Position numbers and translations under genes: made by a program
Assembly (NCBI GenBank): GCA_031285125.1
Contig: JAITWT010000031.1
Location: 1-52,685 of the forward strand
DNA length: 52,685 bases
Direction of reading: 5' to 3'
DNA from: Burkholderiaceae bacterium
GTDB lineage: Bacteria; Pseudomonadota; Gammaproteobacteria; Burkholderiales; Burkholderiaceae_C
Notes under the pieces: generated by a model
Told to the model about the DNA's origin: nothing
What the model saw: only the letters and a program-made list of their open reading frames with translations
Database searches by the model: none
Shown: positions 6,878 through 32,978 of the stretch, piece after piece
Position numbering within the stretch: the stretch's first letter is position 1
Layout of the letters: every line of letters begins with the position of its first letter

Positions 6878-7495
6878 ATGAGCACTGAATCTGTTGCTAT
6901 CGATCCGCAACTCCTGAAAGATCGCATCGCCGCCGCGCTGGGTGAGCGTGCCCGCGGCATTTCGCTGGCGCTCGGTGAGATTACCGTGACTGTCGATGCC
7001 GCGAGTTATTTGGCGGCGATGCAAGTCCTGCGCGATGCGCCCGATTGCCGTTTCGAGCAACTCATTGATTTGTGCGGCGTCGATTACTTCAGTTACGGCA
7101 ACGAGGCTTGGCAGGGCCGGCCGCGCTTTTGTGTGGTTTCGCACCTGCTGTCGGTGAGCCTGAACCAGCGTGTGCGCGTGAAGGTGTTTTGTCCTGACGA
7201 CGGTTTGCCGGTTGTGCCCTCGGTGTACGCGCTGTGGAATTCGGCCAACTGGTTTGAGCGCGAAGCCTTCGATTTGTACGGAATCGTATTCGAGGGGCAT
7301 CCCGATCTGCGCCGCATCCTGACGGATTACGGGTTCATCGGACATCCGTTCCGCAAGGATTTTCCGCTGACGGGGCATGTTGAAATGCGCTACGACGCTC
7401 AAATGCAGCGCGTGGTCTATCAGCCGGTGACGATCGAGCAGCGCGAAATCACACCGCGCATCGTCCGCGAAGACAACTATGGCGGATTGCACTGA
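6878..7495 (+). CDS. nuoC: NADH-quinone oxidoreductase subunit C
   Basis: 30-kDa subunit motif [25 protein letters not shown]. Confidence 0.95.
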
Positions 7496-8748
7496 TGCCT
7501 GAAATCAAAAACTACACACTCAACTTCGGCCCTCAGCACCCTGCCGCGCACGGCGTGCTGCGCTTGGTGCTCGAGCTCGATGGTGAAGTGGTCCAACGGG
7601 CCGACCCGCACATTGGCTTGTTGCACCGCGCTACCGAGAAGCTGGCCGAATCCAAGACCTACATTCAGGCCTTGCCTTACATGGACCGGCTCGATTACGT
7701 CTCGATGATGAGCAACGAGCACGCCCTTTGTCTGGCGGTCGAGAAGCTGTTGGGGATCGAAGTGCCGTTGCGCGCGCAGTACATCCGCGTGATGTATTCA
7801 GAAATCACGCGCCTGCTCAATCACCTGATGTGGATCGGCTCCCATGCCAACGACTGTGGCAGCTCGACGATGCTGATCTACGCTTTCCGCGAGCGCGAGG
7901 ATTTGTTCGATATGTACGAGGCGGCTTCAGGCGCGCGCATGCACGCGGCCTATTTCCGTCCGGGCGGCGTGTATCGGGATTTGCCTGAAACGATGCCGCA
8001 CTTCAAGGTCAGCAAAATCCGCAGCGCCAAAGGGATGGCGCGGCTGAACGAAAACCGGCAGGGTTCACTGCTTGACTTCATCGAGGATTTTACCCGGCGT
8101 TTCGTCAAGTACCTTGAGGAATACCACACGCTGCTGACCGATAACCGTATCTGGAAGCAGCGTACTGTGGGTATCGGCGTGATTTCACCCGAGCGCGCGC
8201 TCAATATGGGCTTGACCGGGCCGATGCTGCGAGGTTCAGGCTTTGCCTGGGATCTGCGCAAGAAGCAACCCTACGAGGTTTACAGCCAGGTCGATTTCGA
8301 TATTCCCGTGGGTAAGACGGGAGACAGTTACGACCGTTACCTGGTGCGTATGGAAGAGATGGCGCAGTCCAACCGCATCATCGCGCAATGCGTGCAATGG
8401 CTGCGTGCCCATCCGGGGCCGGTGATCACCGAAAACCACAAGGTCGCGCCACCGCACCGCGAGGCGATGAAGACGCACATGGAAGAACTGATCCACCACT
8501 TCAAGTTCTTCACGGAGGGGTTCCACGTCCCCGAGGGCGAAGCCTATGCCGCCATCGAGCACCCCAAGGGCGAGTACGGCATCTACCTCGTCAGCGATGG
8601 CGCCAACAAGCCGTACCGGCTGAAAATTCGTCCGCCTGGATTCCCTCACTTGGCCGCGCTGGATGAGCTCACGCGGGGTCACATGCTTGCTGACACGGTT
8701 GCCGTGATCGGCAGTTTGGATATCGTTTTCGGAGAGATCGACCGATGA
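7495..8748 (+). CDS. nuoD: NADH-quinone oxidoreductase subunit D
   Basis: 49-kDa subunit motif [16 protein letters not shown]. Its ATG overlaps the nuoC stop by 1 nt. Confidence 0.96.
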
Positions 8749-9317
8749 GCGATCACCTCACCCCCCCTTCTGCCGCGGACGTCGCGGCCATTCCAGTCAC
8801 CGCGGCACAGTTGCCCCAGTCCATGCTGGAGCGTTTTGCGCGCGAAGTCGCCAAATATCCTGCCGAGCAGGCACAGTCTGCCGTGATTGCGTGCTTGTCC
8901 ATCGTGCAGCAGCAATTTGGACATGTCAGTGTGCAAGCAGAGGCGGCGGTGGCCCAGTATCTGGGTCTGTCGCCGATCGCCGTGCACGAGGTCACGACTT
9001 TTTACAACATGTACAACCCGCAGCCGGTGGGCAAGTACAAGCTCAACGTTTGCACGAATTTGCCGTGTCAGTTGCGCGAGGGGGTTCATGCGCTGGCGCA
9101 CCTCGAAAAAAAATTGGGCATCCGCATGGGCGAGACCACGCCCGATGGCTTGTTCACGCTCCAGCAAAGCGAATGTCTGGGCGCGTGTGCCGATTCGCCG
9201 GTGATGCTCGTCAACGATCGCATCATGTGCAGCTTCATGAGTAACGACAAGCTCGATGCACTCATTGATGGATTGCGCGCGGCAGCCGGGCAGGCCCAGG
9301 AAGGCGGCCAGTCATGA
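8745..9317 (+). CDS. nuoE: NADH-quinone oxidoreductase subunit E
   Basis: 24-kDa [2Fe-2S] subunit with CTNLPCQL and [15 protein letters not shown]. It shares an ATGA overlap with nuoD. Confidence 0.94.
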
Positions 9318-10672
9318 CGACAATGACTCCCGATCAAGTCCTTGCGCAGTTTGAAGCCACTGGCGCGCAGACCTGTTTTCATGGCCGCCACATTCAGCCG
9401 CAGATCTACAAGGATCTGAACGGCAGCAATTGGCGCCTCAAGGATTACGAAGCGCGTGGCGGCTATCAGGCGCTGCGCAAAATTCTTGCCGAGGGCATGA
9501 CGCCCGATCAAGTCATCGCCGAGGTCAAGGCTTCTGGTTTGCGCGGGCGCGGCGGCGCAGGTTTTCCCACGGGGCTGAAGTGGAGCTTCATGCCGCGCCA
9601 GTTCCCGGGGCAGAAGTACCTCGTGTGCAACGCCGATGAAGGGGAGCCGGGGACCTGCAAAGACCGCGATATCTTGCTGTACAACCCGCACCTCGTGATC
9701 GAGGGCATGGTGATCGGTGCTTTCGCCATGGGCGTCAGCGTCGGCTACAACTATATTCACGGCGAAATTTTTCAGACTTACGAGCGTTTCGAGGCGGCCA
9801 TCGAGGAAGCCCGCGCCGCCGGTTATCTGGGCGACAACATCCTGGGCAGCGCTTTCAGTTTTCAGCTGCACGCCGCGCATGGCTTTGGCGCCTATGTCTG
9901 CGGCGAGGAAACCGGGCTGCTCGAATCGCTCGAGGGGAAAAAGGGCCAGCCCCGCTTCAAGCCGCCCTTTCCGGCCAGCTTCGGCCTGTACGGCAAACCC
10001 ACGACCGTCAACAATGTCGAGACCTTGGCGGCGGTGCCGTGGATCATCTGCAATGGCGCGAAAGCCTATCTGGAATGCGGCAAACCCAACAACGGCGGCA
10101 CCAAGATTTTTTCGGTCAGCGGTGATGTGGAGCAGCCCGGCAATTATGAAATTCCGATGGGAACGCCTTTTGCCAAATTGCTTGAGCTGGCCGGCGGCGT
10201 GCGCGGCGGGCGCAAGCTCAAGGCGGTGATTCCGGGCGGATCGTCCTCGCCGGTGCTGCCTGCGCACATCATCATGGAATGCACGATGGACTATGACTCG
10301 ATCGCAAAAGCCGGCTCCATGCTCGGGTCGGGCGCGGTCATCGTGATGGACGAAACGCGTTCGATGGTGCAGGCGCTGCGCCGCTTGTCGTACTTCTATA
10401 TGCATGAATCCTGTGGTCAATGCACCCCGTGCCGTGAGGGGACGGGCTGGATGTGGCGCTTGGTCGATCGCATTCACAACGGACAGGGCCGGCCCAGCGA
10501 TCTCGCGTTGCTCGACAACGTCGGAGAAAACATCATGGGCCGTACGATCTGCGCGCTGGGCGATGCTGCTGCAATGCCGGTGCGCGCAATGATCAAGCAG
10601 TTCCGCCACGAGTTCGAGGCGCTCATTCCCGGGCTTGCCGCTGCCACCGCAGCGACAGGTGAGAAAGTTTGA
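9314..10672 (+). CDS. nuoF: NADH-quinone oxidoreductase subunit F
   Basis: 51-kDa subunit with [16 protein letters not shown] (FMN/NADH site) and [12 protein letters not shown]. Confidence 0.96.
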
Positions 10673-10686
10673 GGCGGGGAACGGAT

Positions 10687-12879
10687 ATGGTTGAAATCGA
10701 ACTGGACGGCCAAAAGGTCGAAGTTACCGAAGGCAGCATGGTGATGCATGCCGCCGAGAAGGCCGGCACCTACATTCCGCACTTCTGTTATCACAAGAAA
10801 CTCAGCATTGCGGCCAGTTGCCGTATGTGCTTGGTCGAAGTCGAGAAGGTCCCCAAGCCGGTGCCCGCCTGCGCGACGCCCGTGACCAAGGGCATGATCG
10901 TGCATACCCGCACTGAAAAAATCACGCGCGCGCAAAAAACGGTGATGGAGTTCCTGCTCATCAATCACCCGCTGGATTGCCCGGTGTGCGATCAGGGCGG
11001 TGAATGCCAGCTGCAGGATTTGGCGGTCGGCTACGGCGTTTCGAGTTCGCGCTACGACGAGGAAAAGCGCGTGGTCGGGCACAAGAATATCGGCCCGCTC
11101 ATCAGCATGGAAGAGATGAGCCGTTGTATCCACTGCACCCGCTGCGTACGCTTTGGCCAGGAAATCGCCGGCGTCATGGAACTGGGCATGATCAACCGCG
11201 GGGAACATGCGGAAATCACCACTGTGGCGGGCGGTACCGTCGATTCCGAACTGTCCGGCAACATGATCGACATCTGCCCCGTGGGCGCACTGACAAGCAA
11301 GCCTTTTCGCTTCAGCGCGCGCACCTGGGAGCTGTCGCGGCGCAAGTCGGTCAGCCCGCACGATTCGACCGGTGCCAATTTGATCGTGCAAGTCAAGGGA
11401 CAACGTGTGATGCGCGTCGTGCCCTTTGAAAATGAAGCGGTCAACGAATGCTGGATCGCTGACCGCGATCGCTTTTCCTATGAGGCGCTGAGCAGCCCCG
11501 ATCGCTTGACTGCGCCGATGCTCAAGCAGGGCGGTCAGTGGCATGAAGTGGATTGGCAAACGGCGCTCGACTATGTGATTCATGGCCTGCAAAGCATCAA
11601 AGCCGAACACGGTGCACAAAGCATCGGCGCGCTGGTCAGCCCGCACAGCACGCTTGAAGAGCTGTATCTGGCGGCACAACTGGTGCGCGGTCTGGGCAGC
11701 GACAACATCGATCACCGGCTGCGGCAGGCTCAATTCATCCGGACGCCGGGCGTGCGCTGGCTGGGGACTTCGATCGCTCGACTGTCGCAGTTGCAGCGTG
11801 TCTTGGTCGTTGGCTCGAACCTGCGCAAAGACCATCCTTTGTTCGCGCAGCGCATTCGCCAAGCCGCGCGCAAGGGTGCGGCGGTGAGCGTGCTGACTTC
11901 GGCGGCGTTGTTGCCGAGCCGTGATGCCTGGGCGATGCCGCTGGCGACGGCACGGGTCGTCGAGCACGACCGCTGGCTCGATGGTTTGGGGCAGATTGCC
12001 GCGGCCATTGCGCGCGTTACCGGCGCCGCGCTGCCGTTTTCCAGCACGAGCGAGCCCGATGACAACGCCCAGGCGATCGCGCAATCACTCCTGTCTGGCG
12101 AGCATAAAGCGATTCTGTTGGGCAATGCCGCTGCGCACCATGCACAGGCCGATGCGTTGCTGGCGCTGGCCAACTGGATCGGCGCGCAAACCGGCGCCAG
12201 CGTGGGTTATTTGACCGAGGCGGCCAATACCGTGGGGGCCCAGTTCGTTGGCGCGCAGCCGCAGGGCGAGGGTTGGGATGCGGGACGGATGCTGGCGGGC
12301 GGCTTGCAAGCGGCGCTGCTGCTCCATTGCGAGCCGCAGCGCGATTCAGCGGCGCAAGCAGGCGCGGCGGCGGCCTTGGCGAAAGCGCAAATGGTCGTCA
12401 CGCTCAGTCCATTCAAGACAAATCTTGAATTCAGCGATGTGCTGCTTCCGATCGCGCCGTTCACCGAAACACCGGGCAGTTTTGTCAACGCCGAAGGCCG
12501 CCTGCAAAGCTTCCACGCGGTGGTTCAGCCCTTGGGGGCGACCCGCCCGGCCTGGAAAGTGCTGCGCGTGCTCGGCACCCTGCTGAATTTGCCCGGCTTT
12601 GCGTTTGAAACCATCGCAGAGGTGTTGGCCCAAGCGCGTGATTCACGCGGCGCGTTGCCCGAAGGCGCCACACACCTGCCCGAGCAATGTCTGAATAATG
12701 CCAGTCAGGCTGATGTTGCCGCCGCTTGGGCAGCGCACACCAGCACCGTGGCTGCCCCTGTGACCGCGCCCATCTACCAACTCGATGGTCTCGTACGGCG
12801 TGCACCGTCCTTGCAACGCACGGCCGATGCGCGCCAGGCGGGCCACCCCGCAGCGCACAAAGAAGGAGCAGCAACGTGA
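10687..12879 (+). CDS. nuoG: NADH-quinone oxidoreductase subunit G
   Basis: 75-kDa subunit with [33 protein letters not shown] and [13 protein letters not shown] at 10687 is preferred over the TTG at 10669. Confidence 0.93.
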
Positions 12880-13958
12880 TGGATTCCTTCTACAACTGGG
12901 GCAATGGTTTGGTCGCCGCGGGCTGGTGGACGGCCGGCGGCTGGCCCGTGGTATGGGCGCTGATTAAAATTATTTGCGTCCTGGTGCCGCTGCTGGTTGC
13001 GGTGGCCTATTTGACGCTGTGGGAGCGTAAGTTTCTCGGCTTTATTCAGGTGCGCCATGGCCCCAACCGCGTCGGTCCGTGGGGTCTCTTTCAGCCTTTT
13101 GCCGATGCCTTCAAGCTGCTGGTCAAGGAGCTGATCGATCCCAGCGCTGCGGCTTCCAATCGGGGGTTGTTCCGCCTTGGCCCGGTACTGGCGATCATGC
13201 CGGCGCTGGCGGCTTGGGTGGCGATTCCCTTCGGGCCCGAGGCCGTTATCGCCAACGTCAACGTTGGGTTGCTGCTCATCATGGCGATCACCTCGATCGA
13301 GGTGTATGGAGTCATCATCGCCGGTTGGGCTTCAAATTCGAAATATCCTTTTCTTGGTGCGTTGCGTGCATCGGCGCAAATGGTCAGCTATGAAATCGCC
13401 ATGGGCTTTTGCTTCGTGGTGGTCATCATGGTCTCGGGCAGCATGAATCTGGGCGAAATCGTCGCCTCGCAGGGCAAGGGGATCGCCGCCAGCATGGGCC
13501 TGGGATTGCTTTCCTGGAACTGGCTGCCGCTGTTGCCGATCTGCGTCGTCTACATGATTTCCGGCGTCGCCGAAACCAACCGTCACCCTTTCGACGTGGT
13601 CGAGGGCGAGGCCGAGATTGTTGCCGGTCACATGGTCGAGTATTCGGGCATGGGCTTCGCCATCTTCTTCCTCGCGGAGTACGCCAGCATGTGGCTGGTG
13701 TCGGCGCTGGCGGTGCTGATGTTCCTGGGCGGCTGGCTTGCGCCGTTTGATTTCTTGAACTTCATTCCGGGTTGGATCTGGCTGGCGATCAAGATTCTCA
13801 TCATGGTGTCGCTGTTCATCTGGATCCGCGGTACTTTCCCGCGCTTCCGGTATGACCAGATCATGCGCTTGGGCTGGAAAATCTTTATTCCCGTCACTCT
13901 CGTGTGGCTGCTGGTGGTCGGCATCTGGATGCAGACCCCGTGGAACATCTGGAAATGA
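12879..13958 (+). CDS. nuoH: NADH-quinone oxidoreductase subunit H
   Basis: MDSFYNWG... start overlaps the nuoG stop. Contains [26 protein letters not shown]. The track ORF start at 12726 is a spurious extension. Confidence 0.94.
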
Positions 13959-13972
13959 GGGCAGGCGATGCT

Positions 13973-14479
13973 ATGACCACCACATCTTCACCTTTTTCGC
14001 TTAAGAACTTTTTCAAGAGCTTCATGCTCGTGGAATTGTTCAAGGGCATGGCCTTGACCGGCCGCTACGCGCTACGCCCCAAGTTCACGGTGCAGTATCC
14101 TGAGGAAAAAACGCCGTTGAGCCCGCGCTTTCGTGGGCTGCACGCGTTGCGCCGTTATGACAATGGCGAGGAGCGCTGCATCGCCTGCAAGCTGTGCGAG
14201 GCGGTTTGTCCCGCAATGGCGATCAGTATCGAATCGGCCGTGCGCGAAGATGGCACACGCCGTACCACGCGCTACGACATCGACTTGAGCAAGTGCATCT
14301 TCTGCGGTTTTTGCGAAGAAAGCTGTCCGGTCGATTCAATCGTCGAGACGAATATCTTTGAATACCATGGTGAAAAGCGCGGAGATCTGTATTTCACCAA
14401 AGACATGCTGCTGGCCATCGGCGATCGCTACGAAAAAGAAATCGCAGCAGCCAAGGCGGCAGACGCCCCTTATCGTTGA
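13973..14479 (+). CDS. nuoI: NADH-quinone oxidoreductase subunit I
   Basis: Two 4Fe-4S motifs, [12 protein letters not shown] and [15 protein letters not shown] at 13973 gives the usual length of about 168 aa. Confidence 0.93.
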
Positions 14480-14498
14480 TTAACGCCGAGTTCGTCCC

Positions 14499-15155
14499 AT
14501 GGATATCAAAACCGGCTTTTTCTATTTGTTCTCGGTGCTGCTGTTGGTGGCGGCCTTCCGAGTCGTGACCGCGCGCAATCCGGTGCACGCGGCGCTTTAT
14601 CTGATGCTGGCTTTCTCGCAGGCCGCCGCCGTGTGGCTGCTGCTGGAGGCTGAGTTTCTCGCCATCGCGCTGGTCCTGGTGTATCTGGGCGCGGTGATGG
14701 TGCTGTTCCTGTTCGTCGTGATGATGCTCGATATCAATGTCGAGAGTTTGCGCGATGGCTTCTGGAAGAATTTCCCGCTTGCCGCCACCGTGGGCGTGAT
14801 CATCGCGCTGGAAATGGCCTATGTGCTGATGGGCGGGTTTCACGACAGCAGTGCCATCGCGCCCGACCAAGCATTGACGGCTGCCGCGCAGGGCTCGAAT
14901 GTCAAGGCGCTGGGGTTGCTGATGTACAGGGATTACGTCTACCCGATCCAGATTGCCGCGGTGATTCTGTTGGTGGCGATGATCTCCGCCATCGCATTGA
15001 CGCTACGCCGTCGTAAAGACAGCAAGTTCATCGATCCCAAAGATCAGGTTCACGTCAAGGCGTCCGATCGTCTGGTCGTCATGAAAATCGCGCCGACCGC
15101 ACCCGCCCGCCAACCCGATCAGCAAAGCGTCGATAACGCGAAGGAGCAGGCATGA
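14499..15155 (+). CDS. nuoJ: NADH-quinone oxidoreductase subunit J
   Basis: Polytopic membrane protein in the conserved operon position. Contains [13 protein letters not shown] and [16 protein letters not shown]. Confidence 0.92.
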
Positions 15156-15460
15156 CACTGACCTTGGGCCACTATCTGACGCTGGGGGCGATCTTGTTCG
15201 CGCTGGCGGTGATCGGAATTTTTCTGAATCGCAAAAACCTCATTGTGCTGCTGATGTGCATTGAATTGATGCTGCTGGCGGTGAATATGAATTTTGTCGC
15301 CTTCTCCCATTATTCGGGCGATTACCACGGACAAATTTTTGTGTTCTTCATTCTCACGGTGGCAGCAGCCGAATCGGCCATCGGCCTGGCGCTGCTGATG
15401 CTGCTGTTCCGCAACAGATCGACGATTCATGTCGATGAAATCAACTCGCTCAAGGGTTGA
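15152..15460 (+). CDS. nuoK: NADH-quinone oxidoreductase subunit K
   Basis: 102 aa with three TM helices. Contains [12 protein letters not shown] and [14 protein letters not shown]. Confidence 0.94.
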
Positions 15461-15485
15461 ATCGCACAAGAACAAGAGCAAAACC

Positions 15486-17510
15486 ATGAGTGCAACGCTT
15501 TCTGCTTCTACGTTGCTGGCGGTTCCGCTGGCGCCCCTCATCGGCTCGGCCATTGCCGGGATTTTCGGTACTCAAATGGGCGGCAATTTGATCGGCCGCC
15601 GCATGACGCATTCCCTGGCTATTCTGGGGGTATTGATCGCTTTTATCATTTCGGCGCTCACGCTGCATAGCGTGATCGTCGATGGCGCCCGATTCGACGC
15701 GACGATCTACCACTGGATGACCATCGGCGCTTTGAAGATGGAGGTGGGCTTTTTCGTCGATGGCTTGACCGCCATGATGATGTGCGTTGTGACTTTCGTC
15801 TCTCTGATGGTGCACATCTACACCATTGGCTATATGGCTGACGACGAAGGGTACAACCGGTTTTTTGCCTACATTTCGCTGTTCACTTTTTCCATGTTGA
15901 TGCTCGTGATGAGCAACAACATGCTTCAATTGTTTTTCGGCTGGGAGGCGGTCGGCCTGGTGTCGTACTTGCTGATCGGTTTTTGGTTCAAGCGGCCCAC
16001 GGCAATTTTCGCCAACCTCAAAGCGTTTCTGGTCAACCGGGTCGGCGATTTTGGTTTCCTCCTGGGCATTGGTCTGATCGCCGCTTACGCCGGCACACTC
16101 AATTACCACGAAGTTTTCGCGCAGGCGAATACGCTCGCCGCGCAAGGATTTCCGGGGACGAATTGGCAGCTCATGACGGTCATTTGCATTTGCCTGTTCA
16201 TCGGCGCGATGGGCAAGAGCGCGCAATTCCCGCTGCATGTGTGGCTGCCTGATTCGATGGAAGGCCCCACGCCAATCTCCGCGCTGATTCACGCGGCCAC
16301 CATGGTGACGGCCGGGATCTTCATGGTCGCGCGGATGTCGCCCTTGTTTGAATTGAGCGATACCGCGTTGAGCTTCGTCCTCGTAATTGGCGCGATCACC
16401 GCGCTGTTCATGGGCTTCCTGGGCATCGTCCAAAACGACATCAAGCGCGTCATTGCTTATTCGACGCTCTCACAACTGGGCTACATGACGGTTGCGCTGG
16501 GCGCTTCGGCCTATTCGGTGGCGGTGTTTCACTTGATGACGCACGCCTTTTTCAAGGCGCTGCTGTTCCTGGCGGCGGGTTCGGTCATCATCGGCCTGCA
16601 TCACAACCAGGACATGCGCTGGATGGGCGGCGTGCGCAAGTACATGCCGGTGACATGGATCACTTTCCTGGTGGGCTCGCTGGCGCTCATTGGCACGCCG
16701 CTGTTCTCGGGTTTTTATTCCAAGGACAGCATCATCGAGGCGGTCAAGGCCAGCCACCTCGCCGGTTCTGGTTTTGCCTATTTCGCTGTGTTGGCGGGGG
16801 TTTTCGTTACGGCTTTTTATACGTTCCGAATGTATTTTCTGGTGTTTCATGGCAAGGAGCGCTACGACCAAAACCCCGAGGCGCACCATGGCCATGACGC
16901 GCATGGCGCGCATCATGGCGGACACAGCAGGCCGCACGAGTCCCCTTGGGTGGTGTGGTTGCCGCTGGTGCTGCTGGCGATTCCTTCCGTCATCATCGGT
17001 GCCATGACGATCGAGCCGATGCTTTTGGGCAGCTTCTTCAAGGATGCCATCTTCGTTGATGCGGCGCGTCATCCGGCAATGCATGAATTGACCGAGCACT
17101 TCCATGGCGTCGGCGCGATGGCCTTGGAGGGCTTGAAAGGCTGGCCTTTCTGGTTGGCGCTGGCGGGTGTGGTGCTGACGTACTACATGTACCTCATCAA
17201 CCCGGTCGTGCCTGCAGCGATCAAGCGCGCGTTCTTGCCGATCGATGCGCTGCTTGAAAACAAGTACTACCTGGACTGGTTCAACGAAAACGTGATCGCC
17301 CGGATGACGCGCGCGATCGGTACCGGCCTGTGGAAGGGCGGCGATCAGGGCCTGATCGATGGTGTTGTCGTCAACGGTTCATGGAAGGTGGTCGGTTTCA
17401 TCTCCAGCGCCGTGCGCCGGATTCAGTCGGGTTTTCTTTATCACTATGCCTTCGGGATGCTTTTAGGCTTATTCATCCTGATGTCGTATTTCGTTTGGTT
17501 TAGGCGATGA
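15486..17510 (+). CDS. nuoL: NADH-quinone oxidoreductase subunit L
   Basis: Antiporter-like subunit with FGWEAVGLVSYLLIGFW, SAQFPLHVWLPDSMEGPTP and YSTLSQLGYM. ATG at 15486. Confidence 0.94.
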   Translation: MSATLSASTLLAVPLAPLIGSAIAGIFGTQMGGNLIGRRMTHSLAILGVLIAFIISALTLHSVIVDGARFDATIYHWMTIGALKMEVGFFVDGLTAMMMCVVTFVSLMVHIYTIGYMADDEGYNRFFAYISLFTFSMLMLVMSNNMLQLFFGWEAVGLVSYLLIGFWFKRPTAIFANLKAFLVNRVGDFGFLLGIGLIAAYAGTLNYHEVFAQANTLAAQGFPGTNWQLMTVICICLFIGAMGKSAQFPLHVWLPDSMEGPTPISALIHAATMVTAGIFMVARMSPLFELSDTALSFVLVIGAITALFMGFLGIVQNDIKRVIAYSTLSQLGYMTVALGASAYSVAVFHLMTHAFFKALLFLAAGSVIIGLHHNQDMRWMGGVRKYMPVTWITFLVGSLALIGTPLFSGFYSKDSIIEAVKASHLAGSGFAYFAVLAGVFVTAFYTFRMYFLVFHGKERYDQNPEAHHGHDAHGAHHGGHSRPHESPWVVWLPLVLLAIPSVIIGAMTIEPMLLGSFFKDAIFVDAARHPAMHELTEHFHGVGAMALEGLKGWPFWLALAGVVLTYYMYLINPVVPAAIKRAFLPIDALLENKYYLDWFNENVIARMTRAIGTGLWKGGDQGLIDGVVVNGSWKVVGFISSAVRRIQSGFLYHYAFGMLLGLFILMSYFVWFRR

Positions 17511-17535
17511 GCGCCAGCACGGGAGAAAAATACAA

Positions 17536-19011
17536 ATGGGTCAGCTGAGCCTTGCCATTTGGATGCCGATCGCTTTCGGCGTCGTGCTGCTCGCGTTTGG
17601 GCGCGACCGCTACGCCAACAGCGTGCGCTGGGCGGCATTAATCGGGTCGATCGTCAGTTTTCTGGTGACGATCCCGCTGTATCTGCACTTTCAGGCCGGG
17701 ACTGCGAACATGCAGTTCGTTGAGCATGTGCTGTGGATTGCACCCTTCAACATCCACTATGCCCTCGGTATCGATGGCCTCTCGCTGTGGTTTGTGTTGC
17801 TGACGGCTTTCATCACGATGATCGTGGTGATTTCGGCTTGGCAGTCCATCACCGAGCGCGTCAATCAGTACATGGGCGCTTTCCTGATCCTGTCGGGGTT
17901 GATGATCGGCGTATTCAGCGCGCTGGACGGGATGCTGTTCTATGTCTTCTTCGAGGCAACGCTCATCCCGATGTACCTCATCATCGGCGTCTGGGGCGGC
18001 CCGAACCGGATCTACGCGGCGTTCAAGTTCTTCCTTTACACCTTGCTCGGGTCGCTGCTGCTGCTGCTGGCATTGATCTATCTGTACAAAATTTCCGGCG
18101 GCAGCTTCAACATTCTGGTGTGGCACGGCGTGAAGATCGGCCGCACTGCGCAGACCTTGCTGTTCTTCGCTTTCCTGGCGGCGTTCGCGGTCAAAGTGCC
18201 GATGTGGCCGGTGCACACTTGGCTGCCCGATGTGCACGTGGAAGCGCCCACGGGCGGCTCGGTGATTCTGGCGGCCATCATGCTCAAACTGGGCGCATAC
18301 GGCTTCCTGCGTTTTTCTCTGCCCATCGTGCCCGATGCCTCACATGAATGGGCATGGCTGATGATTACGCTGTCGCTGATTGCAGTGATCTACGTTGGCC
18401 TGGTGGCGCTGGTGCAAAAAGACATGAAAAAACTCGTGGCCTATTCTTCGGTCGCGCACATGGGTTTTGTGACGCTGGGCTTTTTCATCTTCAGTGATCT
18501 GGGTGTTTCCGGCGGCTTGGCGCAGATGATTTCGCACGGTTTTGTCTCGGGCGCGATGTTCCTGTGTATCGGCGTGCTGTACGACCGCATGCATTCGCGC
18601 CAGATTGCCGACTATGGCGGCGTGGTCAACACCATGCCCAAGTTCGCCGCTTTTGCATTGCTGTTTTCAATGGCCAATTGCGGTTTGCCCGGAACGGCCG
18701 GGTTTATCGGCGAATGGATGGTGATTTTGGGCGCGATCAAAGCCAACTTCTGGCTGGGTCTGGGTGCAGCCACAGCGCTGATTTGGGGCGCAGCCTACAC
18801 ACTGTGGATGTACAAGCGCGTCTATCTCGGTGCGGTGGGCAATGAGCGCGTGGGCAAGCTCCGGGATATCAATGGCCGCGAATTTTTCATACTCGCGCTG
18901 TTGACGATTGCTGTGCTAGGAATGGGGCTCGATCCCAAACCTGTCACTGACCTGATGAACCCCTCGGTTAGTTATCTGCTGCAACATGTTGCAGCCTCCA
19001 AATTGCCTTGA
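17536..19011 (+). CDS. nuoM: NADH-quinone oxidoreductase subunit M
   Basis: Antiporter-like subunit with FAVKVPMWPVHTWLPDVHVEAPT and AYSSVAHMGFV. Confidence 0.94.
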   Translation: MGQLSLAIWMPIAFGVVLLAFGRDRYANSVRWAALIGSIVSFLVTIPLYLHFQAGTANMQFVEHVLWIAPFNIHYALGIDGLSLWFVLLTAFITMIVVISAWQSITERVNQYMGAFLILSGLMIGVFSALDGMLFYVFFEATLIPMYLIIGVWGGPNRIYAAFKFFLYTLLGSLLLLLALIYLYKISGGSFNILVWHGVKIGRTAQTLLFFAFLAAFAVKVPMWPVHTWLPDVHVEAPTGGSVILAAIMLKLGAYGFLRFSLPIVPDASHEWAWLMITLSLIAVIYVGLVALVQKDMKKLVAYSSVAHMGFVTLGFFIFSDLGVSGGLAQMISHGFVSGAMFLCIGVLYDRMHSRQIADYGGVVNTMPKFAAFALLFSMANCGLPGTAGFIGEWMVILGAIKANFWLGLGAATALIWGAAYTLWMYKRVYLGAVGNERVGKLRDINGREFFILALLTIAVLGMGLDPKPVTDLMNPSVSYLLQHVAASKLP

Positions 19012-19037
19012 GTCCACGCTGAACAAGAGAACGACAC

Positions 19038-20582
19038 ATGATTGACAAACTCAGCTGGGTCACGATTTATCCCGAACTGGTGCTGCTCATCATGGGCTGC
19101 TTTATCGCATTGACCGACTTCGGGCGGACCAATGCGCGCCGCAGCCGCAGCTATGGGCTGACACTGGGCACGCTGGCCGTGGTGGTGGTGCTGACCGCGT
19201 GGCAAGCGTGGCAAGCTTCCACCCTGGTCGGCTCGACGTATTACGGTTTTGGAGACGGCTCCGGCTCCCGCTCCAATGGGCTGGTGGTCATGGATGCCAT
19301 GGGCAGCTGGCTCAAATGTTTCGCAGCGCTGGCGCTGATGGTCGGCCTGGTCTATGGCCGTCCCTACGCGGCGGATCGCAACATGCTGCGCAACGGGGGC
19401 GAGTTGTTCACACTCAGCCTGTTCGCGCTGCTGGGTATGTTCGTGATGATCTCGGGCAATAACTTCGTGATGATCTACCTGGGCCTGGAACTTTTGACTC
19501 TGTCCAGCTATGCCTTGGTGGCGCTGCGCCGTGACCACCCGCTTTCCAGCGAAGCGGCCATGAAATATTTCGTCCTTGGCGCGATGGCCAGCGGTTTTCT
19601 GCTCTATGGCTTGTCGATGATGTACGGCGCCACCGGCTCGCTGGATATCAATGCTGTCTACGCCTCGCTCAGCTCACACGAGGGAAGCCCTCAGGTCCTG
19701 GTTTTTGGACTGGTGTTTGTGGTTGCGGGTCTGGCATTCAAAATCGGCGCGGTGCCCTTCCATATGTGGGTGCCTGATGTGTACCAGGGCGCACCCACGG
19801 CGGTGACGCTGCTGATCGGTTCAGCCCCTGAGTTGGCGGCCTTTGCCATCATCATTCGTCTGCTGGTCGTAGGCTTCCAGCCCTTGACTTTCGATTGGCA
19901 GCAAATGCTTGCGTTGCTGGCGATTGCTTCGTTGCTGGTCGGCAACCTGGCGGCGATCGCGCAGACCAACCTCAAGCGCATGCTGGCGTATTCAGCCATC
20001 GCGCAAATGGGCTTCATGCTGCTGGGGTTGACCGCTGGGATCGTCAACGGTGATGCGAGCAATGCCTGGCGTGCCTACAGCGCCTCGATGTTCTACGTCA
20101 TCACCTATGTGCTGACCACGCTGGCGACCTTCGGCATCATCATGCTGCTGGCGCGCGAAGGCTTTGAGAGCGAGGAAATTGCTGATTTGGCGGGCCTGAA
20201 CCGGCGCAGCCCGCTGTACGCCGGGGTGATGGCGATTGCCATGTTTTCCCTCGCAGGCATTCCGCCGATGGTGGGCTTTTATGCCAAGCTGATGGTGCTG
20301 CAAGCGCTGATCAACTCAGGACAGATGGCATATATCGTCCTGGCCGTGTTCGCTGTACTGATTTCTTTGGTTGCAGCTTTTTACTATCTGCGCGTGGTCA
20401 AGGTGATGTACTTTGATGAACCCAGCAGCACGGCCGCCCCAGCAGCCATCGTCGCGCCGCGCCAGGTGCGTGTGGTGCTCGCGCTCAACGGTGCCTTGAT
20501 CCTGATTCTGGGCATCGTCCCCGGCGGCTTGATGAGTTTGTGCATGAAGGCCATCATCAACTCACTGACGACGACGAGTTGA
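19038..20582 (+). CDS. nuoN: NADH-quinone oxidoreductase subunit N
   Basis: Antiporter-like subunit with FKIGAVPFHMWVPDVYQGAPT and AYSAIAQMGFM. It is the last gene of the nuo operon. Confidence 0.94.
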   Translation: MIDKLSWVTIYPELVLLIMGCFIALTDFGRTNARRSRSYGLTLGTLAVVVVLTAWQAWQASTLVGSTYYGFGDGSGSRSNGLVVMDAMGSWLKCFAALALMVGLVYGRPYAADRNMLRNGGELFTLSLFALLGMFVMISGNNFVMIYLGLELLTLSSYALVALRRDHPLSSEAAMKYFVLGAMASGFLLYGLSMMYGATGSLDINAVYASLSSHEGSPQVLVFGLVFVVAGLAFKIGAVPFHMWVPDVYQGAPTAVTLLIGSAPELAAFAIIIRLLVVGFQPLTFDWQQMLALLAIASLLVGNLAAIAQTNLKRMLAYSAIAQMGFMLLGLTAGIVNGDASNAWRAYSASMFYVITYVLTTLATFGIIMLLAREGFESEEIADLAGLNRRSPLYAGVMAIAMFSLAGIPPMVGFYAKLMVLQALINSGQMAYIVLAVFAVLISLVAAFYYLRVVKVMYFDEPSSTAAPAAIVAPRQVRVVLALNGALILILGIVPGGLMSLCMKAIINSLTTTS

Positions 20583-28650: not shown

Positions 28651-28695
28651 CAGTTTGGGTTGAGATGTGTACAACGCCTCTTGCACTCTGCTTAC
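28651..28695 (+). repeat. Direct repeat copy 1 (CAGTTTGGGTTGAGATGTGTACAAC plus weaker tail)
   Basis: 23/25 identical to 38996-39020, with looser similarity continuing about 20 nt. It coincides with the 5' truncation point of the methylase stub. Confidence 0.8.
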
Positions 28696-28998
28696 GTCGC
28701 ACACGACCTGAGCGCCTGGGCGCAAGACTTGGGCTACGACGGCCCGTCCTTCCCCTTCAACCCCGACCGCCGCGCCACCCTGCGCGCCGAACTCGACGCT
28801 TACTACGCCAAACTCTATGGCCTTACCCGCGACGAACTACGCTATATCCTCGACCCCGCCGACATCATGGGCGCCGGCTACCCCAGCGAAACTTTTCGCG
28901 TTCTCAAAGACAAGGAAATGCGAGAATACGGCGAATACCACACTCAAAGGTTGGTGCTGGCGGCGTGGGATAAATTGGAATCAGGAGATTTGGCATGA
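28660..28998 (+). pseudogene. 5'-truncated remnant (C-terminal ~95 aa) of a large DNA methyltransferase / type IIG-like restriction-modification protein
   Basis: There is no ATG, only a TTG inside the repeat. The tail ...RATLRAELDAYYAKLYGLTRDELRYILDPADIMGAGYPSETFRVLKDKEMREYGEYHTQRLVLAAWDKL matches from memory the conserved C-terminal tail of large fused N6-adenine methylase/restriction enzymes. Nothing upstream encodes the catalytic domains. Confidence 0.55.
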
Positions 28999-29432
28999 GT
29001 GCCCTACCATTTACTGACCGTGAATTAAAGCGGGCATGGCGTGAGCTATCAACCATCGCAACGCCGTCTGCTGGAATCTCTCGTGAAAATCCACATCGTT
29101 TACTGCTTTTCTATGCAGTGGAGTGTGGCTTGAAAGCTGCGTGGCTCAAGCAACAAAGACGTACTCTATTCGACAGCGATGACATCGAAATGACAGGACA
29201 CAGCTTGCGCAAGATACTCAAAGACTTGAAAGTTGGTTTCGATCTCTCGTTGCCTCAAAATCTTCGATTAAATTCTGTCAATCACAATAAAACGGAAATT
29301 CCCCGCAATGGTGATTTTGATGATCTGCATCAGGTATGGCGCTATGGTGGAAAATGCCTGACACCTACCGATAAGGATTGCGAAAAAAGATTGCAAAAAG
29401 TGCTGAACTGGATTCATGGAGAATTGAAATGA
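28995..29432 (+). CDS. 145-aa hypothetical protein with a HEPN-like helical pattern
   Basis: AT-rich ORF whose ATG overlaps the upstream stop (ATGA). It shows the spacing E43-x2-LKA48 ... H69-S-L71 ... R116-Y117 reminiscent of classical HEPN domains (aEkaLKA ... H-x-L ... RYp). Confidence 0.6.
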   Translation: MSALPFTDRELKRAWRELSTIATPSAGISRENPHRLLLFYAVECGLKAAWLKQQRRTLFDSDDIEMTGHSLRKILKDLKVGFDLSLPQNLRLNSVNHNKTEIPRNGDFDDLHQVWRYGGKCLTPTDKDCEKRLQKVLNWIHGELK

Positions 29433-32182
29433 ATGAATATCAACCGATGACAGAGCGTTTACTGACATGGCTGGATGTGGAACGCTTGCTCAAAAAGGTG
29501 ACTGAGCTATGGGCGCGACTGCCTAAGGATGTATGGAGCATTGATTGTTTTTCCGAGGGAATGGAAATACGCCTGGCCTCTGATTCAGTCAATCAAGTGG
29601 ATGAGTGGCTGTCAAAAACCTTTTGTGGCGTCTATCAGCGAGAGCCGCGAGCTATTCGCTTGCGTATTGGCTCCACACTGTACCCGATCGAATTGGTAGA
29701 GGAACAAGGCAGGGTGACAGCAACACAAAGCTACCCCTTGTGGCGCGATGTCGCCTATTTGCCTGACATCAGGGAAAATGATCTGCCAAATGATGTACCG
29801 GAATCGCACGAACCTCGTTTGCCACAACGCTTTGTTGAGGGACCAGATCTGGTTTCTTTTCATTCTTTCAAAGGAGGCGTGGGACGTACTACCGCTCTGA
29901 TGACCTATGTTGCGGCTTGCTTGCAAGATGCCAGCAAAGATGTCAAGAAAATTCTGGTGGTGGACGCCGATCTGGAGGCTCCAGGGATCAGTTTTTGGCT
30001 CGATGACAGCAATCGTCCAACTGTGTCTTTTGTGCAGTTGCTTGAGGCACTGCACTACCCGCCTGCGGGGTTGTGTGCAAGCTTGGATTTTTTCGCCGAT
30101 GAGTTGAGAAAAACGTCATTGAGTTTCGGTGGATTACAGCGAGAGCTGTTTGTTTTGCCTGCGGCACTGGATTTGATTGAAATTCAGGATATGCCTGTTA
30201 CTCCCGAACATTTGGCTCGAAATCCGGAAAACCATTGGCAGCTCAGTGATCATTTGCATGCATTAGGAAAGCGTCTAGGTGTTGATGCTGTTTTCATTGA
30301 TTTGCGTGCTGGCCTGAGTGAATTGGCAAGCCCGATTTTATTCGATCCACGTATTGATCATTTTTTTGTTAGCACGGTGGCTCCTCAGTCTATTTTGGGC
30401 ATGAAAGAGGTTTTGTGCCGCCTGTATGCAAATAATCGGCAGTTACCACAAAATTGGCAGGAAGATGCACGTCCTACTGTTATCTTGAGCTTGCTAACCA
30501 AAGAACTGCGCGATTCCGAACACTATGAAAGTGCATTGAGAAAACTGGGGGCGGCATACCCTGACTATTCTGAGGAGGATTCATTGACTCCATCAGTGCA
30601 GTGGCTGGAGGCCGAGTTTATGAGCACACTGATGTCCATTGCCTCAATACGCGAAGCTTTGGACATTTTGCCTCAGTCCAGTCGCTTGTTTTCAAGCGCC
30701 AAGGAGTGGGCAACTTCGCTATATGCTCCATCAACTCAATCATCGTCACAAGTTACCAGCACAAACTCATTCAACGCATCATCGAGACAACAACAAGCAA
30801 AAAAATTGTCGAAGGCTTGTCAAGCAGCCGAATTTGCAGAAGGTGGACAGGAAAGCCCCATCCTTGCCACAGAGCCACTGCTTAACCTTGGCAAACACTA
30901 TTCCAGCAATCTGCCAAGTATATTGATGATAGGTGCAAAAGGTGCAGGCAAGACATTTATTTTCCGTCAAGTAGTTCAATCCAGAACATGGCGAACTTTT
31001 TTAGGTAAACTTGGTTTTGATTCAGAAAATATTGTCAATGCTACTATTTTCCCTGTGTTGTGGTCTGATAATATTGAAGACAAACCCAATGGAGAAATAA
31101 AAATATCTCAAGGTTGTACGCTTGAATCAATCGAAGGCAACAAGGACAAATTGCTGAGCAAAACTGTTTTGCGCAATAAAATTAATTCGCAACTCAAAAG
31201 CAGATCAAAAAACTGGGATGACTTCTGGGATAAATTGATTACCGCCCAATTGGGCGTAGCCACTGGTGGATTAAAGGCGGTTAATAAACTTTTGATAAAA
31301 AAATCTGCTCGCATGATTTTTGTGTTTGACGGCATTGAGGATGCTTTCAAAGATGCTGCTGATTTGCTATCTGCCGAGGCTATTGACGCTTTGTTGAGGC
31401 TGCCCAATCGTGTGAGCGAACTACAAAATCGTCATCTTGGTGTCATAGTTTTTGTGCGGGCGGACTATGTACAAACAGTAATTCGGCAAAATTTGGGACA
31501 ATGGTTACAGCGATTCGAACCATTCAGATTGCAATGGAATGCAGAAAGTTTCTTGAGACTGGCATATATGTTGAGCAGTCACGCAAATGTCATTCCATCT
31601 GGAAAACCCGCCGAATCTCTGCGTCTGGATGAATTAAAATCCGAGCTTGAGCAATTGTGGGGGAAAAAACTGGGTCGCGAACAATCCAAAGAAGCGCACT
31701 CTGCTCGTTGGGTATATACGGCCTTGTGTGACCTCAGGGGGAATGTGCAGGCTCGTGACTTGGTGCGTTTCTTGAAAATTGCCGCTGATGAAGAGTCCAA
31801 GAAAACAGTGCAGACATGGACAGATCGTTTGTTGACACCCGAATCGATGCGCAAAGCCATTCCAGCTTGTAGCACAGGGAAAGTTGAGGAAGCCAAAGCT
31901 GAAATTGCGCCACTCAAAAGATGGGTTGAACTAATGAATGAAAAAAATATTCACAGCCTCAAAGTACCATTTAGTGCTCAGCAGGCTGGTTTGGATGCGA
32001 CTTTGCTAAATGCCTTGCAAGAGCTAGGTGTAATCTATGAAGATAAGGATGGAAAATTGGGAGAAGAGCGCCTGTTCTTGCCCGAAATTTATCGAACTGG
32101 CTTGGACTTTGAGACTTCTGCGGCTGGACGACCGCGTATGCAAGCCTTGCTGAAGAAAAATATCGGAGTCATACCGCTGTAA
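29429..32182 (+). CDS. 917-aa dual P-loop NTPase: unknown N-domain + ParA/MinD-like ATPase with KGGVGR-type Walker A + Ser/Gln linker + second AAA/STAND-like P-loop NTPase + C-terminal helical (wHTH-like?) region
   Basis: ATG at 29429 overlaps the stop of the 145-aa ORF (ATGA). The first module has SFKGGVGRTT (nt 29870-29893), VVDADLEAPG and AVFIDLRAG. The second has GAKGAGKT (nt 30932-30955), the Walker B-like MIFVFDGIED (from nt 31313) and VIVFVRAD. The ORF-track start at 29378 is an upstream extension. Confidence 0.7.
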   Translation: MNEYQPMTERLLTWLDVERLLKKVTELWARLPKDVWSIDCFSEGMEIRLASDSVNQVDEWLSKTFCGVYQREPRAIRLRIGSTLYPIELVEEQGRVTATQSYPLWRDVAYLPDIRENDLPNDVPESHEPRLPQRFVEGPDLVSFHSFKGGVGRTTALMTYVAACLQDASKDVKKILVVDADLEAPGISFWLDDSNRPTVSFVQLLEALHYPPAGLCASLDFFADELRKTSLSFGGLQRELFVLPAALDLIEIQDMPVTPEHLARNPENHWQLSDHLHALGKRLGVDAVFIDLRAGLSELASPILFDPRIDHFFVSTVAPQSILGMKEVLCRLYANNRQLPQNWQEDARPTVILSLLTKELRDSEHYESALRKLGAAYPDYSEEDSLTPSVQWLEAEFMSTLMSIASIREALDILPQSSRLFSSAKEWATSLYAPSTQSSSQVTSTNSFNASSRQQQAKKLSKACQAAEFAEGGQESPILATEPLLNLGKHYSSNLPSILMIGAKGAGKTFIFRQVVQSRTWRTFLGKLGFDSENIVNATIFPVLWSDNIEDKPNGEIKISQGCTLESIEGNKDKLLSKTVLRNKINSQLKSRSKNWDDFWDKLITAQLGVATGGLKAVNKLLIKKSARMIFVFDGIEDAFKDAADLLSAEAIDALLRLPNRVSELQNRHLGVIVFVRADYVQTVIRQNLGQWLQRFEPFRLQWNAESFLRLAYMLSSHANVIPSGKPAESLRLDELKSELEQLWGKKLGREQSKEAHSARWVYTALCDLRGNVQARDLVRFLKIAADEESKKTVQTWTDRLLTPESMRKAIPACSTGKVEEAKAEIAPLKRWVELMNEKNIHSLKVPFSAQQAGLDATLLNALQELGVIYEDKDGKLGEERLFLPEIYRTGLDFETSAAGRPRMQALLKKNIGVIPL

Positions 32183-32210: not shown

Positions 32211-32978
32211 ATGAACCCCCTCCAGCGCACCCTGATCGAAAAAGCCGGCCACGACAACGGCTTCGAGCACGTGCTGCCATCCACCGAAACCGTCACCTTG
32301 GCATCCGCCCGCCATCGCACCCGCGCCGAGGTTTCCCTATCCCCATCGAATGAATTCGACACCCGTTTCCAATCGGCATCCCCCGCGCTGTTATCAGAAT
32401 TACGGCGCAGCTTCGGCGACGGCATAAAGAACGCCGCCTCATTCCACGCCGCCACGCTGGCCGACCTGTCTCAACTGCTGCGCCGCGCTGCCCGTTTGTC
32501 GCAGGCGCTGCCCAATCAGGCAGAACGCGACTACCAAACCGCCGTGCAACAAGCGCTGGCCCAGTTGCCGCCCGGCAGCCAGGGGACCGAAATCGAACGC
32601 ATGGCGCGCCAGCGCATCGGCCAGGACCGCTACCGCGCCGCCATGCTCGACTACTGGAGCGGCGTCTGCGCCGTCACCGGCGTGGCGATTCCCGAAGTGC
32701 TACGCGCCAGCCATGCCAAGCCGTGGGCCGAATGCGAGAGCGATGCCGAACGGCTGGACGCCTTCAACGGCTTTTTGCTGGTGGCCAATCTCGATACCCT
32801 GTTCGACCGTTTTCCCATCAGCTTTGACGGTGTCTGGCATCTGCTGATCAGCGACTGCCTATCCCCAAACGATCGGCAGGGACTTGAAATTCATCCAGAA
32901 ATGAAACTGCGCTGGCTGACCCGCGAGCACCAACATTACCTACAGTGGCACCGCGAGCATTTCCTGCTCGGCGTTTGA
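32211..32978 (+). CDS. HNH endonuclease (HNH_2-type, restriction-endonuclease-like)
   Basis: 255 aa and GC-rich. Contains RIGQDRYRAAMLDYWSGVCAVTGVAIPEVLRASHAKPW...NGFLLVANLDTLFDRFPISF, which fits the HNH_2 pattern (GQ..FR...L..Y...CA.TG......L.A.HI.P......NG..L...LH.LFD.G.I). Confidence 0.75.
   Translation: MNPLQRTLIEKAGHDNGFEHVLPSTETVTLASARHRTRAEVSLSPSNEFDTRFQSASPALLSELRRSFGDGIKNAASFHAATLADLSQLLRRAARLSQALPNQAERDYQTAVQQALAQLPPGSQGTEIERMARQRIGQDRYRAAMLDYWSGVCAVTGVAIPEVLRASHAKPWAECESDAERLDAFNGFLLVANLDTLFDRFPISFDGVWHLLISDCLSPNDRQGLEIHPEMKLRWLTREHQHYLQWHREHFLLGV

Follow-up and report, generated by a model that had tools for sequence, protein, structure and literature searches.

Pairs of a small HEPN gene and a gene for a ParA-like ATPase have been predicted before. 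In the passages that Anantharaman et al. devote to it, the dyad of a MAE_18760-family HEPN gene and a ParA/Soj gene is predicted to be a toxin-antitoxin system in which the ATPase acts as nucleotide-dependent antitoxin (Anantharaman et al., 2013, PMC3710099). MinD/ParA-like domains that are predicted to be inactive have been placed among the effector domains related to cell division that occur in NTP-dependent conflict systems, some of them with STAND ATPases (Kaur et al., 2020, PMC7159879), and a further relative is found among the PDC systems, a set of unpublished phage defence candidates (PMC11811056). Here we analyse a two-gene module on the forward strand of contig JAITWT010000031.1 from Burkholderiaceae bacterium (GCA_031285125.1), of which positions 1 to 52,685, the whole stretch of 52,685 nucleotides (nt) under analysis, are referred to as the window. 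The first gene (28995..29432, +) encodes a putative HEPN-like protein of 145 amino acids (aa) and the second (29429..32182, +) a protein of 917 aa, composed of an N-terminal domain, a ParA-like module with the motif KGGVGR, a linker, a STAND-like NTPase and a helical region with a winged-helix-like end. With a probability of roughly 0.55, we regard the pair as a self-contained, horizontally mobile conflict module, most likely anti-phage and of the abortive-infection type.

The pair shares with the MAE_18760 dyad, whose prototype is from Microcystis, the arrangement of a small HEPN-type gene beside the gene of a ParA/Soj-like ATPase of the SIMIBI class. It differs from it in that the Rx4-6H motif, which is kept in the MAE_18760 family, is missing from the family of the window's small protein, and in that the passages on the dyad mention neither a Lys-to-Arg exchange in the Walker A motif nor a fused STAND module (PMC3710099). 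That MAE_18760 itself is the Microcystis partner of the present family could not be confirmed from cluster names. The systems of Kaur et al., likened here by description and not by homology to the window family, likewise bring together a predicted-inactive MinD/ParA-like domain and a STAND (AP-ATPase) in machinery for immunity or programmed death, whereas they comprise vWA-MoxR ternary and actinobacterial peptide-processing systems, and a HEPN-like partner or a two-gene cassette is not described for them (PMC7159879). Avs and other bacterial NLR-like STAND proteins resemble the large protein in their P-loop switch, a DG-x-ED Walker B motif, an arginine on the sensor strand, sub-threshold matches to NACHT and nSTAND models and a defence-island context, but the window family has no C-terminal repeat or sensor domain, carries a ParA-like module at the N-terminal “effector” position and has an obligatory small partner. 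The terms ParA and KGGVGR gave no match in a 2026 survey of STAND proteins (PMC13581612).

The three PADLOC profiles of PDC-M28 correspond in turn to the small protein (A, 138 positions), to the N-terminal region plus the KGGVGR module (B, 438 positions) and to the second P-loop module (C, 480 positions); separate profiles for the ATPases imply separate genes, whereas the window has a single polypeptide. The large protein of the window gives a local match to PDC-M28B (aa 138-198, 55.8 bits, 1e-15). Elsewhere, a 945-aa protein (locus L020) matches PDC-M28B at 4.6e-29 and PDC-M28C at 2.5e-21, one member of the family (L098) matches both B and C within one protein, and the small partners of L020, Klebsiella and Microcystis give weak matches to PDC-M28A at E values around 2e-3. 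From these profile matches, we read PDC-M28 as a split three-gene relative and the module in the window as a fused two-gene form. The L020 locus (7192-10514 on an IMG/VR contig) holds a distant KGGVGR protein that is preceded by a 161-aa protein with the strings ECIIKYA and ELRYEY, so that the pairing of a KGGVGR ATPase and a small HEPN-like gene reaches beyond the family described here. The module is thus not categorically new: its family has a RefSeq name, a split relative is catalogued, and the general logic was foreshadowed in the two comparative-genomics papers.

Translation of 29429-32182 (+) yields 917 codons followed by TAA and contains no internal stop. In the list of open reading frames (ORFs) this frame is open upstream as far as a TTG at 29378, while the ATG at 29429 and the TGA of the preceding ORF overlap as ATGA. 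Such a stop/start overlap is the usual signature of translational coupling, and because of it we take ATG 29429 as the likely start. The window protein has over 120 full-length, collinear homologues at 65-72% identity, so that the single polypeptide with two P-loop modules proposed in an earlier note on this DNA is borne out. Two separate genes with a hidden frameshift in the linker were considered and are excluded by the uninterrupted ORF and by homologues that are collinear from about residue 10 to about residue 916.

A search of 1.84 billion cluster representatives returned 1084 clusters at E <=1e-3 and 303 at E <=1e-30. Nearly all of the best 150 have a length of 850-950 residues and align with the window protein between about residues 10 and 916; collinear representatives extend down to 27% identity. 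The fusion of the two modules, which the earlier note had set against a split architecture, is, in these alignments, the norm for over 300 50%-identity clusters from Proteobacteria and Cyanobacteria; far from being a rare event, it is how a large family is usually built. A profile search found the family to be common among Cyanobacteria (Dolichospermum, Nostoc, Calothrix, Microcystis, Crocosphaera) and added Klebsiella, Enterobacter and Methylomonas to the Beta- and Gammaproteobacteria that a first search had returned. RefSeq applies the name “KGGVGR-motif variant AAA ATPase” to full-length homologues of 65-70% identity in Pseudomonas, Aeromonas, Ralstonia, Acidovorax and Microcystis.

The first module (aa 139-432, 29843..30724, +) is delimited by its NCBIfam match, its structural matches and its residue conservation. 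NF047398, the “KGGVGR-motif variant AAA ATPase,” matches aa 139-331 over profile positions 2-188 of 190 with 153.3 bits (cut-off 90), and the window protein carries the eponymous motif; the model is, however, a domain of 190 positions whose name is silent on the second NTPase, the N-terminal domain, the partner and the function. In a Foldseek search of the PDB, the top 50 matches are all SIMIBI ATPases (ParA, MinD, FleN, FlhG, Soj, ArsA, NifH, HypB), the best of them with E values down to 4.4e-6 and target-normalised template-modelling (TM) scores of 0.70-0.73 to MinD/ParA structures. The search was run with the full-length model, and its matches are dominated by ParA folds. The ParA/MinD-like character claimed in the earlier note is thereby supported. 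Pfam models of the ParA type stay under their gathering scores (AAA_31 22.8 vs 27, VirC1 20.8 vs 24, CbiA 18.5 vs 25.4), and a profile search of the whole protein against PDB sequences gave marginal ParA matches only.

Three sequence strings reported for this module, SFKGGVGRTT at aa 146-155, VVDADLEAPG at 177-186 and AVFIDLRAG at 287-295, are found by translation at exactly these positions. They comprise the Walker A motif K148-GGVG-R153-T154 (KGGVGRT, aa 148-154, 29870..29890, +), the Walker A' motif D179-A-D181-L-E183 and the Walker B/switch II motif D291-L-R293. The signature lysine of the deviant Walker A motif (K148) is present, and the canonical lysine of GK[ST] is replaced by Arg153. 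All counts of site conservation are based on 132 full-length sequences that represent 50%-identity clusters; in these, K148, D179, D181, E183 and D291 are invariant (132/132 each), while R153, T154 and R293 are each found in 131, the single deviation at R153 being a lysine. The Lys-to-Arg change at position 153 is therefore fixed across the family. Since the signature lysine, the Mg-binding threonine and the aspartates of Walker A' and Walker B have all been kept, the module does not resemble a decaying pseudo-ATPase.

Arg293 (within D-L-R-A-G, nt 30299-30307) lies two residues past the Walker B aspartate and represents a second, family-specific arginine at a switch II position. MinD has D-S-P-A-G at the corresponding place. 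A conserved basic tail, G-A-R-P-R, is found at the extreme C-terminus (aa 901-903, nt 32129-32137). By analogy with the arginine and lysine fingers of ParB and MinE, Arg293 or the C-terminal basic tail could act on the first nucleotide site.

Exchange of the canonical lysine for arginine is the classic ATP-trap mutation in ParA-family ATPases. P1 ParA K122R binds ATP, dimerises, binds DNA non-specifically and locks irreversibly onto ParB, its hydrolysis can no longer be stimulated and its phenotype in vivo is worse than null; McdA K15R is likewise an ATP trap (PMC8684754). The family shares with both mutants the identical Walker A exchange beside an intact signature lysine, but these are laboratory mutants of partition and positioning ATPases, whereas in the family the arginine is the wild-type state and is accompanied by the near-invariant Arg293. 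The earlier suggestion that the exchange shifts the module from hydrolysis toward binding and dimerisation agrees, by analogy, with the published ParA mutants.

The second module was placed by several weak but family-wide signals. Its nucleotide-binding domain (aa 482-700, 30872..31528, +) contains the strings GAKGAGKT at aa 502-509, MIFVFDGIED at 629-638 and VIVFVRAD at 672-679, again at the positions previously given, which include the Walker A motif G502-AKGAGK508-T, the Walker B motif D634-G-I-E637-D and a sensor-1-like R677 followed by D679. At this site G505, G507, K508, D634, G635, R677 and D679 are found in all 132 sequences, G502 and K504 in 131, T509 and E637 in 130. Both nucleotide sites, R153 included, are therefore under strong purifying selection. 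NF047389 (P-loop ATPase, Sll1717 family) aligns to aa 497-828 over profile positions 31-363 of 454 with 65.9 bits, which is below its cut-off of 75 (E 3.6e-18). Both RefSeq names given in the earlier note thus exist, the KGGVGR name applying above its cut-off and the Sll1717 name denoting a sub-threshold relative. Faint Pfam matches of the window protein to NACHT (13.1 bits), nSTAND5 (17.1) and AAA_16 (19.9) recur below threshold in 19 diverse relatives, of which 16 match AAA_22, 12 AAA_16, 12 NACHT (best 2.6e-6), nine nSTAND1 (best 8.3e-8), seven nSTAND3 and four NPHP3_N. In a predicted structure the strands 497-502, 539-544, 629-633 and 670-677 follow the expected strand-helix order. Together with NF047389 and the sub-threshold matches to NACHT, nSTAND and AAA models, this order upholds the proposal of a separate P-loop NTPase. 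A profile of the module searched against PDB sequences retrieved no STAND chain, merely a designed repeat protein and Ras-type noise. Because of the family-wide sub-threshold matches, the DG-x-ED Walker B motif and the arginine on the fourth strand, we place module 2 (aa 482-917) in the STAND class, an assignment resting on these family-wide weak matches and on the model. The role of R677 as sensor-1 arginine is our inference from its position on strand 670-677. The remainder of the chain (aa 705-917, 31541..32179, +), recognised by predicted secondary structure and invariant columns, consists of a helical domain and a winged-helix-like end with the conserved tail G-R901-P-R903 ... L907. The modelled unit at aa 845-912 is compatible with a C-terminal winged helix; a C-terminal repeat or other sensor domain was not found, and the chain ends at aa 917 right after this unit.

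The AlphaFold2 model of the large protein, built on 50 homologues, has a mean predicted local distance difference test score (pLDDT) of 81.6 and a predicted TM score of 0.73. It shows a folded alpha/beta region at aa 10-93, a poorly ordered stretch at 94-130, the first module at 139-432, disorder at 435-450, the second P-loop domain from 482 to about 700, a helical region spanning 705-838 and, at 845-912, a unit of helices and strands. The N-terminal alpha/beta domain (29456..29707, +; blocks of 80-87 pLDDT) comprises in the model the elements H14-24, E35-40, E45-49, H54-68, E75-77 and E84-91, and its TWxD motif (T13, W14, D16) is invariant in 50 sequences. Residues 1-140 had been described as free of recognisable motifs; the lack of a family match stands, as NCBIfam and Pfam scans of the window protein returned none for the N-terminal domain, but aa 10-93 form a folded domain with the conserved TWxD motif. 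The variable linker that follows (aa 94-138, 29708..29842, +) is mostly of low confidence (pLDDT <50 at aa 94-102 and 115-128) and varies in length in the alignment, with a conserved stretch, YPLWRD, at aa 102-107. The Ser/Gln-rich linker between the modules (aa 433-460, 30725..30808, +), noted earlier from composition, coincides with the low-confidence segment 435-450 (pLDDT <50) and is variable among homologues.

The small gene is a constant companion of the large one, and its TGA overlaps the large gene's ATG by 4 nt. Using a hidden Markov model of the small protein on 100 loci, we found a homologous ORF immediately upstream and on the same strand in 92; of the eight misses, five are truncated contigs (L005, L032, L038, L057, L068), two are non-family loci (L018, L020) and one is a true absence (L050). 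The partner precedes the large gene in P. aeruginosa, Aeromonas caviae, Roseateles, Klebsiella and Microcystis, with identities to the window partner from 70% down to 42%, and a search in P. aeruginosa that started from the partner found a gene for 919-922 aa downstream in nine of the nine places listed. The 4-nt stop/start overlap recurs in 60 of 90 loci, and the two frames lie within a few nt of each other in most others. Across 64 unique loci, pairwise identities of the partner correlate with those of the large protein (r = 0.88). The two genes are thus translationally coupled, adjacent and co-diverging, i.e., an obligate pair.

In 67 unique sequences of the small protein, Y40, E43, G45, K47, H69, R116 and Y117 are invariant. 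Its AlphaFold model (pLDDT 90.5) is mostly helical with an inserted hairpin, and the invariant E43-x3-K47 lies on helix 34-53. Ex3[KR] is a frequent second motif of HEPN families, and the HEPN-T and AbiV families have an alternative histidine instead of Rx4-6H, according to the sections of Anantharaman et al. that describe them (PMC3710099). By inspection, the combination of Ex3K, a separate histidine and Arg-Tyr resembles the arrangement in HEPN-T and AbiV. A further histidine, His112, precedes Arg116 and is replaced by Asn in some members. Several relatives carry the UniRef label “HEPN domain-containing protein,” the Pfam HEPN model was matched by one of 23 diverse members at E 0.31, and Foldseek listed 1wol, 1wty and HEPN-MNT complexes weakly, at E values of 1-5. 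On sequence pattern and model we tentatively assign the partner to a non-canonical HEPN-like domain.

Composition and location mark the pair as mobile. It forms a 3.2-kb island with a guanine-plus-cytosine (GC) content of 44-46% within a window of 61%, and GC at third codon positions is 0.41-0.43 in both genes as compared to about 0.75 in the other genes of the window. Among related loci, 60 had 4 kb or more of flanking sequence, and in these the pair averages 6.8 GC points under its flanks; it lies more than 3 points below them in 45 and above them by that margin in none. In P. aeruginosa it is found at a prophage end, between lysis genes and integrase, in Aeromonas caviae in a type I restriction-modification locus with a HATPase_c_3 protein and beside Tn7-like genes, in Roseateles downstream of gyrB, in Klebsiella flanked by insertion sequence elements, and in Microcystis near genes for a Dam-like methyltransferase and BrnT. 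Across about 90 loci no third gene is conserved family-wide. When the flanks of 78 loci, with 149 non-redundant proteins, were scanned with PADLOC (E <=1e-8), the result, to be read as a match list and not as a measure of enrichment, comprised REase_II, MTase_II, HNH, GajB, LmuB, DrmD, BrxH, IetA, PbeA, mad3, mad8, PD-Lambda-5_B and other models. The pair is richer in AT than its hosts and moves among prophages, loci for restriction-modification, regions with transposons and chromosomal hotspots.

A phage gene provides circumstantial support for a role in defence. Gene Mic1_05 of Microcystis phage Mic1 (locus L018, MN013189.1, 4016-4636), annotated as ParA family protein, encodes 206 aa that match aa 482-706 of the window protein and is the top structural match in BFVD (TM 0.82). 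It is 60% identical to aa 471-693 of a family member from Microcystis aeruginosa, compared with which it has lost 17 aa, its Walker A motif has turned from GAKGAGKT into GEDVAKKT and the arginine of the sensor strand is changed to histidine. Gene 05 looks like a captured, dead nucleotide-binding domain and hence a candidate anti-defence decoy; a truncated and catalytically disabled domain that derives from the host and is carried by a phage infecting that genus fits such a decoy, and it is for this reason that we count it in favour of the defence reading.

If the pair is a defence module, its parts might work together as follows. The KGGVGR module would be a natural “ATP trap,” which by analogy with the ParA mutants forms an ATP-bound nucleotide-sandwich dimer with poor hydrolysis and would function as a latch or scaffold and not as a motor. 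The STAND module would be a nucleotide-driven switch whose oligomeric state is altered by an infection cue, and the small protein would be the effector, probably a non-canonical HEPN-type RNase with a site made of Glu-x3-Lys, His and Arg-Tyr. The large protein would keep it inactive and, when the switch fires, either release it or assemble it into active dimers. As there is no C-terminal repeat sensor, sensing would have to fall to the N-terminal domain, to the ParA module or to the small protein. It is a tentative idea, held at somewhat less than even odds, that this amounts to a new control logic, in which a hydrolysis-dead ParA latch and a sensor-less STAND switch gate a HEPN-type RNase and the dead STAND copy of the cyanophage poisons their assembly.

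Several observations weigh against a mobile anti-phage module with a HEPN-type effector. The family is scarce on phage genomes and plasmids, with two IMG/VR loci and a full-length copy in two of five matching plasmid records. Two loci (L050, L028) have the large gene but no intact partner, which fits a toxin/regulator pair and is no proof of one. Rx4-6H is not conserved in the partner family, in which Tyr-Gly follows the invariant Arg116, and the structural match to HEPN is weak (1ufb, E 0.58, probability 0.72, TM 0.44-0.49); Pfam gave no significant match for 20 close and 23 diverse partner members, and partner profiles retrieved nothing meaningful from PDB sequences. The large protein of the window does not match PDC-M28C (E <=0.1), nor does the window partner match PDC-M28A, and our literature search found no functional study of the family and no experiment on it. 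The two loci that lack an intact partner differ in kind: in L050 (5800-6622) the partner ORF is absent from the 360 nt upstream, and in L028 (3773-6607) a deletion, whose junction spans the similar strings RLLLF and RLLTW, joins the first 41 residues of the partner to the large protein at about its residue 13.

Such losses would also suit a pure toxin-antitoxin (addiction) module, in which the HEPN-like RNase is the toxin, the large ATPase is an antitoxin acting by nucleotide-dependent binding or modification, and the pair chiefly stabilises the mobile elements that carry it. This is the function that the passages on the HEPN and ParA/Soj dyad in Anantharaman et al. (2013, PMC3710099) predict, and it would go well with the tight translational coupling of the two genes, with their location on prophages and islands and with the occurrence of large-gene-only derivatives, a partner-only locus having been seen in none of the loci examined. 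A 917-aa antitoxin with a STAND switch is, however, much more elaborate than simple neutralisation would call for, and the crippled STAND copy borne by a phage indicates direct conflict with phages; we consider addiction alone rather unlikely. Many toxin-antitoxin systems double as defence, and to that extent the two explanations overlap. An effector could instead be sought in the ParA-like module, hydrolysis-deficient, ATP-bound dimers of which would, once triggered, cover the nucleoid or obstruct the division or partition machinery and so arrest the cell, with the small protein as adaptor, sensor or inhibitor. Predicted-inactive MinD/ParA-like domains have indeed been classed as effectors (Kaur et al., 2020, PMC7159879), P1 ParA K122R still binds DNA and is worse than null in vivo (PMC8684754), and the partner has no canonical HEPN RNase motif. 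Yet six of the seven invariant partner residues are polar or aromatic (Y40, E43, K47, H69, R116, Y117) and look like an active site more than like the surface of an adaptor, and determinants for binding DNA or membranes were not identified in the ParA module, which makes this role improbable in our view.

The genomic neighbourhood bears on two further explanations. In the window and in four other loci (L022, L026, L027, L030) methyltransferase-like and/or HNH genes closely flank the pair, and in the window all four frames lie on one strand and either overlap or are separated by a 28-nt gap, as might be expected if the pair were an accessory of a restriction-modification-like system that depends on the upstream N6-adenine methyltransferase and the downstream HNH gene. 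This arrangement is nevertheless limited to about five of about 90 loci, a third gene being absent family-wide; the flanking genes differ from the pair in GC, and in the window the pair is intact but of the methyltransferase gene about the last 100 codons are left, so that we give such a dependence very little credence. A housekeeping ATPase for positioning or regulation, as suggested by automatic source names (MinD-like, BcsQ-like, ParA family) and by the ParA/MinD fold of the first module, is harder still to reconcile with a patchy, strain-specific spread, a GC content below that of the flanks and varied neighbourhoods, and the neighbourhoods that were inspected showed no genes for ParB, MinE or cellulose synthase; given also that Pfam models of the ParA type remain below their gathering scores, we can hardly credit this role.

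Members of the family occur both in pathogens (P. aeruginosa prophages, Klebsiella, Enterobacter, Aeromonas, Burkholderia) and in cyanobacteria that form blooms (Microcystis, Dolichospermum, Nostoc), and they offer a natural experiment, a ParA/MinD ATPase in which the P-loop lysine is permanently arginine, that may also reveal how a STAND switch works without a repeat sensor. If the pair is a defence system, it would embody a new principle of effector control and would be of relevance to phage therapy against P. aeruginosa lysogens and to the dynamics of cyanophages and their hosts, and the decoy-like gene of Mic1 would be an immediate handle on the defence role.

In the window, the pair is preceded by the GC-rich remnant of an N6-adenine DNA methyltransferase-like gene (28672..28998, +; about the last 100 codons), the stop of which overlaps the ATG of the small gene, and is followed after 28 nt by a GC-rich HNH_2 endonuclease-like gene (32211..32978, +; Pfam HNH_2 at 3.4e-10 and PADLOC models for HNH and type II REase). 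The remnant is 62-76% identical to C-terminal parts of genes upstream of the pair in L022, L026 and L030; the methyltransferase-like gene of L022 carries GNPPW, and in L022 and L026 the homologue extends to the 5' end of the contig. HNH homologues are found directly downstream of the pair in L027 (60% identity), L026 (51%) and L030 (37%). In this sub-clade, the pair may be embedded in a restriction-like system of methyltransferase plus HNH. A scan for promoters and terminators around the operon gave a signal no higher than the shuffled expectation.

Among the P. aeruginosa loci, L001-L004 and L101-L109 have the pair at one fixed prophage place past a GH19 endolysin cassette, an accessory (“moron”) position; in L001 a DUF6896 gene and the integrase follow downstream of it. 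The methyltransferase remnant of the window abuts a divergently oriented MltA gene. Further upstream, positions 10669-20582 (+) hold a run of NADH-quinone oxidoreductase (nuo) genes, in which 12726-13958 encodes a NuoH-like membrane protein.

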